This document shows, in pieces, positions 3,001 through 6,000 of a DNA stretch of 13,586 nucleotides. The stretch is from a virus (taxonomy: Duplodnaviria > Heunggongvirae > Uroviricota > Caudoviricetes). Numbering within the stretch: the stretch's first letter is position 1; the number at the start of each line of letters is the position of its first letter. The position numbers were made by a program. Location of the stretch: IMG/VR virus record IMGVR_UViG_2897352509_000015; one strand, 5' to 3'.

Positions 3001-6000
3001 ACATCGTGGTCATTCCAGTACGCCCACGGGCAGATTTGTCCTGCTCGCTCGTAAGCTCCACGTAAAATTACGTTGTCGAAGGTGGCCCCGTTACCCCAGA
3101 CTTTTAAATATTTCGTATTGTCTGCGTGCCGGTTAATGAAATGGTTTAGTTCTGAGAGAGCATCGCTGATCGACAAAGTATCATCAATACTTCCAGCGAT
3201 ACCAGCGCGACTTTAAATGCGGTAAGTACGTTTTTAACCACATCGATTTTGAATACTATTTCATCACATACAAACGATTTATCGTCTACTACCGTTTCAA
3301 TTCCGGTAATCGTGTTTTGTAGCCATTTGGTTAATTCAGCCATTTTTCATTACCGCCCTTTCGGGCGGTCTCCTGATGTTCTGAGGGTGCAGGAATCCCT
3401 CCGGTTAAGGATTAAATTTTATTTACAGAACTGAATTTAATTATTCAGATATACGTATCTGTAACCTTACGAACCTACTCACTGGATGCCTATTTCATAA
3501 AAATAATCCAGTGGGTTTTATCGTTTTTTCCTGTTCGTTGACCGATAACAGGTTTTCTGTCGGTCAGTACCAATATCTGGCGAACAGGTATTTGCGTTTC
3601 ATTCCATTTAAAAATCAGAACGCCGGATGGACGCAACACACGAAAGGCTTCTTTAAATCCCTGCCGCAAATCATCACGCTAGGTATCTTTATTCAGCCGT
3701 CCATATTTCTTTCCCATCCAGGCGTTATCACCAACACGCTCAAGATGCGGAGGGTCGAATATAACCATCGAAAAAGATGCGTCTGCAAATGGTAGTGCAC
3801 GAAAATCAGCTATCAGATCAGGACTGATAATCAGGCGTCGTCCATCACACAATGTGTGCTCTTCCTTTCTGATATCGCTAAATATCGCCCGGTCGTCATT
3901 CTTATCGAACCAGAACATGCGACTGCCACAGCACATGTCGAGGATTGCTGCATGTCCAGTCACTGGCTGCCTCCTTTGCGAAGCCGTTCCGCCCATTCTT
4001 CAAGGGATTTCTCTGCATATTCACCGGACAGGCCATCAATCGGATGCGATTCATTAGCTAACTCTTCTTTTGCTGACAGAATCATGCGTGTAACGTCGAA
4101 AACTTCAGCCAAAGGCTTATTGATAAATCCGTGATTGAAAGCAGCAGCAAGACGGCTTGCGGTACTTTGTTTTCCAGTGCTGCACATTTAGCTTCAAGCG
4201 CATCGAATTTACGTATCAGGTATTCAGCATCCGTTTCATTCACTTTCAGATCTCGCGGTACACATTTCCCGCGAAGAAACCCTTCCATTTCGAAAACATT
4301 CATGCGCATTTGCGTAACTCCGATAACTCGTTGAAGCGCTCAATAAACATCCCGTAGGCATGGCTCGGTGCCAGTGGAATCACGTTGAACATCTCTGTTG
4401 CCGGGATACCTTCCAGTACAGGCCAGAAAGAGCCATCATCAAGCCCGAGATCGCGGCGTTCGGTTGCCAGCATGATGAGATCGGCATATTTCACAGGCGT
4501 GCTCATAACCGTGGGTAACCCGTATTTCTCACGGATTACGGCGTCTATTTTTTCTTCCATCCGTTTATAGTCGGGAAGAAGGCGTTTCAGTGGCGCGGGG
4601 ATGTCCTGGCAATACGCTTCTGTCGCATCATGCATTAACGCTTCAAAAGCAAATTCCTGCGGTACCAGCTGGCTGCAAAGCACCGCATGTTGGGCGACGC
4701 TGTAGAAGTGTGAAAGATGGCCGGCAAAGCGACAGATATTTGAAAGGGAAACCGCGATATCGTTAATATCGATGTTGTCTTTATTTATCCTGTCATAATA
4801 AAAATGCTTCCCGGAAAAAGTTTTAATAAATGACATTTTGTTCTCCACGTTATATGCGCTGCACCGCGCTGAATTCGGGTAAAAGGAAGCCCTCACCGTC
4901 CGGCGATTATTGAGTCAATTACATTTCCATAAATGCCCCCGTAGGGGCGGTTAGTTTCTCCACAAAACAGAGAAGAACTACCAATAAAGGTTTCTACTTT
5001 GCTGTCCTTGAATTTCTCAACAAGCAGATCACGAAATTCGTTAGCCATTTCTTCCTGCACCGCCTCCAGCTGAATAATGCGCAGAACCAGTACCGGACGA
5101 TCGCCAGTGATAATGCTGAGGCGTAATTTAAACGGACGTTCTTTCAGACCTTCAAACGGAATGCATTTAAATTCAAATGCCACTGGCATAATGTCTTTGG
5201 TCTTCGCTTCGACAGACTCCATCAGGGAGCGTTTGCCGCTGAAGTCATTATCTTCAAAATCAGCGGTCTGGTTTGCTTCAATCGTGATTTTACGGACCGC
5301 CGCAGCCGCTTTTGTTGCCTGAATGGTGTCACCATTAGCATCAAAGCCCACAAGGTAGTCGGCCCAGTCTTCAATCCATTCTGGTTGCCGCCAATCGTAT
5401 CGCGTTTATTGACCCGGCAAACGGGAATGAAACGCCGATGTTTGTGGCGCAGGGCAACCAGATATTCATGAACGACGTGTTCCTGAAGCGCCTGACGGCC
5501 CCCACCATTACCAGTGGTGGAAATCCACCGGCATTTTCCCTGACACCGGATGGAAAGCTGACTGCTAAAAATGCGGATATCAGTGGTAACGTGAATGCGA
5601 ACTCCGGGACGCTCAACAACGTCACGATTAACGAGAACTGTCGGGTTCTGGGAAAACTGTCCGCGAACCAGATTGAAGGCGATCTCGTTAAAACAGTGGG
5701 CAAAGCTTTCCCCCGGGACTCCCGTGCACCGGAACGGTGGCCATCAGGGACCATTACCGTCAGGGTTTATGACGATCAGCCGTTTGACCGGCAGATTGTT
5801 ATTCCGGCGGTGGCATTCAGTGGCGCTAAGCATGAGAGAGAGCATACTGATATTTACTCCTCATGCCGTCTGATAGTGCGGAAAAACGGTGCTGAAATTT
5901 ATAACCGTACCGCGCTGGATAATACGCTGATTTACAGTGGCGTTATTGATATGCCTGCCGGTCACGGTCACATGACGCTGGAGTTTTCGGTGTCAGCATG

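Follow-up and report, generated by a model that had tools for sequence, protein, structure and literature searches.

The locus considered here raises the question of whether a prophage methyltransferase gene interrupted by one in-frame stop codon, behind which the same frame continues with convincing protein sequence, is a dead gene or a gene expressed across its stop. It is located on the minus strand of the 13,586-nucleotide stretch of DNA from a caudoviricete virus (IMG/VR record IMGVR_UViG_2897352509_000015), the full length of which is referred to below as the window. An earlier note, made from the sequence alone, described a methyltransferase-like frame stopped by a TAG at 3679-3681 and extended by 62 further codons to 3490; the stop was regarded as a point nonsense lesion and not as a natural terminus, and was ascribed either to recent inactivation, in line with the other lesions of this arm, or to a gene expressed only by amber suppression. 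The evidence summarized below indicates that the gene is almost certainly dead, i.e., that it underwent a recent and now fixed pseudogenisation, and does not depend on amber suppression for its expression.

Minus-strand translation of 3487..3996 confirmed the methyltransferase frame with one internal TAG (3681..3679), 3' of which 62 sense codons (EAFRVLRPSGVLIFKWNETQIPV) follow in the same frame and lead to the terminal TAG at 3492..3490. Read from 3996, the minus-strand product comprises MGGTASQRRQPVTGHAAILDMCCGSR...FDPPHLERVGDNAWMGKKYGRLNKDT up to the internal stop and RDDLRQGFKEAFRVLRPSGVLIFKWNETQIPV...HWIIFMK from there to the terminal one. Both motifs reported earlier, DMCCGS (motif I; window positions 3922-3939, minus strand) and DPPH (motif IV; 3745-3756, minus strand), are present in this frame and conserved in the homologues. 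With the local base composition, an open run of 62 codons is expected by chance with a probability of about 4%; since the extension is homologous to the remainder of a known protein, chance openness is not at issue.

The limits of the gene had to be corrected. According to RefSeq/PGAP, the methyltransferase starts with the GTG at 3963..3961, the gene thus spanning 3490..3963 on the minus strand. This start is preceded by AGGAGG (3975-3970, minus strand) at a spacing of six bases and shares bases with the TGA at which the upstream ORF ends (GTGA), and the N-termini of most homologues fall within one residue of its position. The ATG at 3996 is located within the upstream ORF, and the 105-aa product counted from it was encountered in only two GenBank records, those of strains SS17 and SS52. 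With GTG 3963 and not ATG 3996 as the start, the previous estimate of a full-length product of about 168 aa has to be lowered to 157 aa, and the truncated form comprises 94 and not 105 aa. The coordinates of the features are compiled in Table 1.

Table 1. Positions of the methyltransferase pseudogene and of the neighboring features of the prophage remnant in the window.
Feature	Position	Strand	Remarks
Methyltransferase pseudogene	3490..3963	-	157 codons and terminal stop; GTG start, premature TAG at codon 95
Premature amber TAG	3679..3681	-	Ancestral TGG (Trp95), as judged by alignment; mutated base 3680
Remaining N-terminal ORF	3682..3963	-	94 codons; holds motif I and motif IV
62 codons stranded behind the stop	3493..3678	-	100% DNA identity to the intact allele
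Shine-Dalgarno sequence AAAGGAGG	3970..3977	-	Supports GTG 3963 over ATG 3996; six-base spacer
Upstream ORF	3960..4310	-	116 aa in other O157:H7 genomes; TGA overlaps the methyltransferase GTG
Ancestral Dcm site CCTGG, now CCTAG	3679..3683		
Junction of the 1.46-kb deletion, near 3190	3163..3217		Downstream of the methyltransferase gene; relative to the complete prophage of NE 1092-2
Junction of the very large deletion, near 5383	5356..5410		YfdQ fragment fused to tail-tip J fragment
Duplicated dusA 3' end	1318..1422		
Integrase	10987..12084		
dusA	12173..13210		

The intact allele of this gene (WP_000145671.1, 157 aa) occupies the corresponding dusA locus of E. coli CD45 and E. coli O157:H7 NE 1092-2, in both of which it resides in a far more complete prophage. 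Aligned with it, the window is identical in 473 of 474 nt, the sole difference being the replacement of TGG by TAG at window position 3680. By this comparison, the ancestral codon 95 is TGG (Trp) and the lesion is a single G-to-A transition at position 3680. The view of the stop as a point nonsense lesion is thereby borne out: the allele of the same locus differs by one base, and nearly all homologues keep the Trp and reach approximately residue 157. Many O157:H7 chromosomes match the 701-nt region 3400-4100 with 100% identity, and the PGAP/RefSeq annotation of the identical sequence reads "SAM-dependent methyltransferase", pseudogene with an internal stop; the pseudogene status of the methyltransferase is, hence, already known, being flagged in RefSeq.

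The conservation of the affected residue and of the sequence behind it is pronounced. Of the 120 best homologues, 119 have Trp95 and 118 extend to residue 157; the earlier note had named homologues ending at the position of the TAG as evidence for a natural short form. It had also proposed looking at whether homologues encode Gln, Trp, or another residue there: in the pooled alignment of homologues from Enterobacteria, Firmicutes, and Bacteroidota, column 95 holds Trp in 292 of 293 sequences and Leu in the remaining one, a stop at codon 95 being absent from all 293, and Trp95 is invariant in the alignments of 36 and 78 sequences. The family itself, a 157-aa single-domain DPPH methyltransferase, is conserved across temperate phages of at least five phyla. 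It counts 7470 homologues at E <= 1e-5; in the phage collection, the match covers at least 80% of the protein in 245 of the 256 genomes having one, and phages of Streptococcus, Listeria, Enterococcus, Vibrio, Acinetobacter, Porphyromonas, Gordonia, and Akkermansia still show an identity of 45-65%. Forms of 248 aa were considered as possible fusions with the upstream 116-aa ORF and rejected, the fusion test revealing no similarity between them and this ORF.

As regards its affiliation, the restored protein matched phrog_954 of PHROGs ("DNA methyltransferase") with E = 2e-86 over residues 3-157. The only Pfam match above threshold was Methyltransf_11 (E = 5.6e-5), confined to residues 97-118, i.e., downstream of the stop; Methyltransf_25 remained a sub-threshold match, no Pfam match of the restored protein to N6_N4_Mtase, N6_Mtase, or MethyltransfD12 was obtained, and all NCBIfam matches were far under their cut-offs. 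Searches of the PDB by sequence, with the protein as well as with a profile, gave nothing significant (best 1ve3, E = 0.04-0.07). At the same time, D9, C11, C12, and G13 of motif I and D70-P71-P72-H73 of motif IV turned out to be invariant or nearly so in the homologues.

The fold was predicted with AlphaFold, the model used here being that obtained with 78 sequences from three phyla (pLDDT 89, pTM 0.86); an earlier run with 36 close homologues (pLDDT 58) was discarded. The predicted 157-aa structure is a single domain with strands at residues 7-11, 26-30, 34-37, 43-46, 64-70, 110-119, 138-144, and 149-156 and helices at 82-87, 95-109, and 127-131; in this model, motif I comes after strand 7-11 and the DPPH motif IV (residues 70-73) after strand 64-70. 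A Foldseek comparison with the PDB retrieved class I methyltransferases only, at TM-scores of about 0.5. The best matches were archaeal Trm11, Bud23, rRNA m4(2)C synthase, and M.TaqI, with E-values of 3.9e-5 for 6zxv and 6e-4 for 1aqi, and 8vyd was also among the best. The intact protein would thus represent a Rossmann-type methyltransferase of minimal size, its DPPH motif being of the sort that serves the methylation of exocyclic amino groups. In the model, the stop at codon 95 deletes helix 95-109 together with strands 110-119, 138-144, and 149-156, that is, three of the seven core strands. Since the TAG at codon 95 interrupts the seven-stranded fold, the locus is therefore a pseudogene of the phrog_954 / WP_000145671.1 family and not a functional member of it. 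A survey of the literature on yfdM, the O157 methylome, orphan prophage methyltransferases, and DPPH phage methyltransferases returned no characterisation of the family or of its activity.

The homologues and the model also bear on the suggestion that the protein naturally ends after 94 (or 105) aa, the frame downstream being open by coincidence. Such a suggestion can draw on two fragment families of PHROGs, phrog_11564 (residues 2-93) and phrog_6151 (residues 57-157); the existence of separate N- and C-terminal families implies that fragments are annotated as genes in some phage genomes. Still, the best PHROGs match is the full-length phrog_954, thousands of full-length proteins contain, in their C-terminal half, sequence homologous to the 62 downstream codons, and in the model these codons contribute to the core sheet. 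Given the near-universal Trp95 and the full-length homologues, the short form does not represent a natural terminus, and a coincidentally open frame is extremely unlikely.

Hardly any more credible is a split enzyme, in which the 94-aa fragment and a re-initiated C-terminal piece, e.g., the 59-aa one starting with TTG 3669, would assemble into an active methyltransferase. A TTG-start ORF does exist at 3490..3669 and is sometimes called as a 59-aa product (three of the loci retrieved, L014, L016, and L017), but this TTG is not preceded by a Shine-Dalgarno sequence, and a fragment initiated there would begin within helix 95-109 of the model. In addition, no homologue naturally split at this point occurs among the 293 aligned, and the lesion is a single recent base change.

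The damage is not limited to the methyltransferase. The window contains a whole prophage remnant integrated at dusA, which includes, from the integrase side, a DinI-like gene, three DUF1076/NleG-type effector genes, tail-fibre genes, and lom, followed by a C-terminal fragment of tail-tip J, a YfdQ fragment, yfdR, the 116-aa ORF, and the methyltransferase pseudogene; its last part is made up of a fusion ORF, a 3'-5' exonuclease fragment, prtN, and the duplicated dusA 3' end. The deletion of 1.46 kb cost the prophage several small genes as well as the N-terminal part of the 3'-5' exonuclease gene, and the very large one removed yfdP, the immunity (repressor/cro) region, and all genes up to the C-terminal part of J. 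With the immunity region, the early-left promoter region is gone as well, and a search of the minus strand from 3300 to 5700 yielded no sigma-70-like promoter. The methyltransferase pseudogene is, to judge from the organization of the remnant, probably poorly transcribed too. In the window, a 1-nt frameshift near 4186 breaks the upstream 116-aa ORF up into two ORFs of 75 aa each; the 75-aa product is known from a single genome, and the 116-aa form is kept in eight of eight TAG-allele loci shown. A scan of genome contigs for an exact match to the window-specific stretch 4160-4205 gave 0 hits, and no contig is on record for the 75-aa product. The source genome of the window displays 1-nt indels, at 1020, 4186, and 4850, that are unique to it.

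The distribution of the two alleles was followed by megablast with 55-nt queries centred on the variant base, such that every 28-nt seed must include the variant. Of 5426 complete E. coli genomes, 201 harbor the TAG allele, in one chromosomal copy each and always as an exact match; all the genomes among the matches listed are O157:H7 or O157-like, with sizes of 5.4-5.7 Mb. The TGG allele was likewise found in 201 genomes, belonging to many serotypes (including O121, O145:H28, with strain RM13514 as an example, and O111:H8) and to some O157 strains, where it is a second copy. No difference in the 474-nt gene was seen among the 11 TAG-bearing loci that were fetched, each of which lies in the same remnant context, and all eight distinct TAG contexts returned by the search display the same remnant, sometimes with extra IS insertions. 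The 55-mers spanning the junctions near 3190 and near 5383 were each detected in 201 genomes. As suggested by the equal counts and the shared top matches, the TAG allele and both junctions apparently occur in the same 201 genomes. The claim of a recent inactivation alongside the other lesions of the arm gains support from the fact that both deletion junctions share the count of the TAG allele.

The same survey settles the question of whether the TAG could be a sequencing or assembly error in this record. In favor of such an error, the source genome carries the unique nearby 1-nt indels listed above and a frameshifted ORF seen in no other genome. The TAG 55-mer is, however, exact in 201 independent complete genomes, and 6941 index blocks and at least 1000 contigs include the 94-aa product, under names such as "methyltransferase [E. 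coli O157:H7]". An identical TAG allele of such breadth rules out a sequencing error, the probability of which is next to nil, and speaks for a single event inherited clonally.

The remaining alternative is that the gene functions because its TAG is read through, either by amber suppression or in a programmed manner, so that Gln, Trp, or some other residue enters the protein at position 95. The downstream frame is indeed intact and identical to that of the functional allele, and termination at a UAG is comparatively weak in E. coli when the next base is C. The strongest argument against this reading is that a gene dependent on recoding would retain its stop across homologues, whereas none of the 293 does (0/293), and the stop is absent from the closest intact allele as well. 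A search with ARAGORN revealed no tRNA gene within the window. As for the host, the supE allele (glnV, anticodon CUA), sought as a positive control with a query centred on the variant base, was detected in 158 of 5426 genomes; 60 of these carriers were sampled, and almost all are K-12 laboratory derivatives of about 4.6 Mb (such as C600, DH5alpha, JM109, XL1-Blue, and HB101), with none labelled O157 among them. Furthermore, the promoter-bearing part of the operon is deleted, and the Gln usually inserted would be a non-conservative change at a nearly invariant Trp. Expression by suppression only, which the earlier note had kept as an option, is for these reasons very improbable. Basal read-through of the UAG-C may give traces of the full-length protein, which would then carry Gln in place of Trp95.

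Having favored a dead gene over a recoded one, one may ask how the stop arose. The mutation converted the ancestral ACCTGGC into ACCTAGC, and the changed G lies opposite the inner cytosine of CCAGG, the one that is methylated in a Dcm site. The dcm gene is usual in E. coli, and deamination at Dcm-methylated cytosine is the classical mechanism of amber hot spots. There are 50 possible single-base nonsense changes in the gene, including 16 G:C to A:T transitions; only two of the 50 (Trp82 and Trp95) are targets involving Dcm 5-methylcytosine, and the observed change is one of these two. This is one event, for which the probability of such a coincidence by chance is 0.04 to 0.125. Probably, though by no means surely, the stop goes back to a deamination on the non-coding strand, at the Dcm-methylated cytosine of CCAGG, as its sequence context suggests. 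The locus would then be a clear-cut case, from nature, of an amber codon created precisely where Dcm methylates a cytosine.

The course of events was almost certainly as follows. A small phage class I SAM-dependent methyltransferase was once encoded in the early-left operon of a lambdoid prophage residing at dusA. The G-to-A change at 3680 turned the Trp95 codon TGG into an amber TAG, so that translation now ends after 94 residues. The resulting 94-aa product retains the SAM-binding motif I and the DPPH catalytic motif; as the long helix is missing along with three of the seven core strands, it would be unable to form the methyltransferase fold. The methyltransferase lesion, the deletions, and the loss of the promoter and of most structural genes were apparently fixed together in the O157:H7-type lineage, and the pristine state of the 62 downstream codons suggests a lineage too young for further substitutions to have accumulated.

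In terms of significance, the locus adds one more to the decayed genes of cryptic O157:H7 prophages and as such matters little. At the same time, the TAG allele can serve as a lineage marker co-occurring with two deletions in a dusA remnant that carries three NleG-type effector genes, and the locus draws attention to a very widely conserved small phage methyltransferase, for which the presence of intact and null alleles in close strains would aid the assignment of a target. Thus, the natural TGG/TAG pairs (e.g., O157:H7 NE 1092-2 versus typical O157:H7) would make the methyltransferase target directly testable. It is also conceivable, albeit very unlikely, that the loss of the methyltransferase was selected in the O157:H7 lineage, or that the weak UAG-C stop leaks enough enzyme to be of consequence, the family possibly representing a minimal nucleic-acid amino-methyltransferase with an undescribed conserved role.

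Comparison with known systems places the pseudogene as follows. Its closest relative, WP_000145671.1 of phrog_954, shares 473 of 474 nt with it and occupies the same position in the same type of dusA prophage, after yfdR and the 116-aa ORF; it differs in having TGG at codon 95 and a complete prophage around it, as opposed to the TAG and the deleted remnant of the window. At the level of the fold, archaeal Trm11 (tRNA m2G10), M.TaqI (DNA N6-adenine), and archaeal rRNA m4(2)C synthase display the same class I Rossmann-type architecture, and in the (D/N)PP(Y/F/H) amino-methyltransferases motif I precedes motif IV, as is the case with DPPH here. The likeness to Trm11, M.TaqI, and the rRNA m4(2)C synthase is limited to a TM-score of about 0.5 and an identity of 15-20%, and the protein, with its 157 aa, is without a THUMP or target-recognition domain.

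As regards the mutation, amber hot spots at Dcm sites (CCWGG) were reportedly described in lacI by Coulondre and Miller in 1978. The change in the window is of the same kind, a G:C to A:T transition that hits exactly the methylated inner C of CCWGG and creates an amber codon. In lacI, however, CAG turned into TAG in a mutational spectrum, whereas in the window TGG turned into TAG via the non-coding strand, as one natural event fixed in a lineage.

Two further truncated methyltransferase genes of cryptic prophages invite comparison. The yfdM gene of E. coli K-12 (CPS-53) is likewise a truncated methyltransferase pseudogene in a cryptic prophage possessing yfdP, yfdQ, and yfdR. In contrast to the gene considered here, it belongs to the Dam-like phage N6-adenine methyltransferases, is situated at another position of its prophage, and was truncated by deletion; hence, yfdM was rejected as a counterpart, being a fragment of the Dam-like family from a different place in CPS-53 and not a homologue. 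The second case is a paralogue of the Qin/DicB type (WP_001310834.1, 118 aa; e.g., in E. coli 14EC047), which belongs to the same family, with about 89% DNA identity, and is shortened by a nonsense codon in a cryptic prophage as well. Its lesion is independent, with a stop at codon 119 (Lys in homologues) and a second one further downstream, and lies in another prophage and locus. Independent nonsense codons in this paralogue and in the dusA remnant thus indicate that the family decays repeatedly in cryptic prophages.

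The decayed prophage remnant in the window is nearly identical to its O157:H7 counterparts (three differences) apart from the mosaic patch (see the table), where approximately 80 differences separate it from each of the RefSeq O157:H7 copies. A segment including this patch, window 4050-5050, finds a top identity of just 92.6% among the 5426 complete E. coli genomes searched. Noise was considered as a source of these differences and ruled out, since the yfdR differences within the patch sit on third codon positions. By the same token, the patch is natural in origin, a paralogous prophage having been the partner in allele exchange or gene conversion.

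Coordinates of the features discussed, in the window unless a comparison locus is named
Feature	Coordinates	Strand	Remarks
Chromosomal flanks of the prophage	1-1281 and 12329-13553		DUF2713 gene, dusA, pspG
65-aa ORF, WP_000829415.1 ("hypothetical protein")	3146-3343	-	Crosses the junction (~3190) of the 1.46-kb deletion
Frameshift (1-nt indel)	near 4186, in 3960-4310	-	Splits the 116-aa ORF
Mosaic patch	4165-4978		Comparison with RefSeq O157:H7 copies
Three tandem DUF1076/T3SS_NleG effector genes	8513-10516	+	Adjoin the integrase/DinI end of the remnant
Methyltransferase paralogue	L004 4100-4565	-	E. coli 14EC047, Qin/DicB-type prophage

The chromosomal flanks show 72 (1-1281) and 23 (12329-13553) differences from canonical O157:H7, and no exact match to them was found among the complete genomes of the collection. 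Since the flanks diverge while the prophage they enclose hardly differs, either the same decayed remnant sits in chromosomal surroundings that are somewhat different, or the flanks have recombined.

The frameshift turns the 116-aa ORF that precedes the methyltransferase gene into two overlapping 75-aa ORFs. The N-terminal 75-aa product is known from a single genome (AYV44193.1, EEL45_26795, on a 5,569,804-bp O157:H7 contig), and the unsplit ORF is retained in all eight displayed loci carrying the TAG allele, i.e., the methyltransferase gene with the premature TAG at codon 95. Either this indel stems from an error in sequencing, or it is a lesion particular to the strain; further 1-nt indels unique to the window sequence occur at 1020 and 4850.

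Decay of the remnant is still under way, as judged from additional IS insertions within it in some TAG-allele genomes (loci L015 and L016): IS66 lies between yfdR and the YfdQ fragment, and elsewhere yfdR has given way to an IS3-family element. WP_000829415.1 is a fusion artefact of the 1.46-kb deletion and no original gene, because its reading frame runs across the deletion junction. The effector genes are intact; the surrounding phage functions are decayed.

The methyltransferase family itself comprises single-domain proteins of ~157 aa, for which a characterised target was looked for and none was found. Phage loci L009 and L010 and the matches in the phage collection show it conserved, with 45-65% identity, among temperate phages of Streptococcus, Listeria, Enterococcus, Staphylococcus, Vibrio and Acinetobacter, and likewise of Porphyromonas, Bacteroides, Fusobacterium, Gordonia and Akkermansia, usually near replication genes. 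Cross-phylum conservation at such a level is uncommon for an accessory gene of phages. Among the closest homologues, roughly one in six is longer (248-255 aa; P0009, P0016 and P0018 are examples) and bears an N-terminal extension of ~90 aa; these long forms come from Leclercia, Citrobacter, Enterobacter and Klebsiella aerogenes. The possibility that this extension is the upstream 116-aa ORF in fused form was rejected, the two being unrelated on comparison.

The paralogue in E. coli 14EC047 carries a stop at codon 119 (Lys in homologues) and a second one further downstream, and is annotated as a 118-aa protein. PHROGs places fragments of the protein in families of their own, phrog_11564 (N-terminal) and phrog_6151 (C-terminal). 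Together, the separate fragment families and the independent stops point to repeated decay of the methyltransferase gene: the nonsense codons of the Qin/DicB-type paralogue arose independently of the one in its counterpart in the window.
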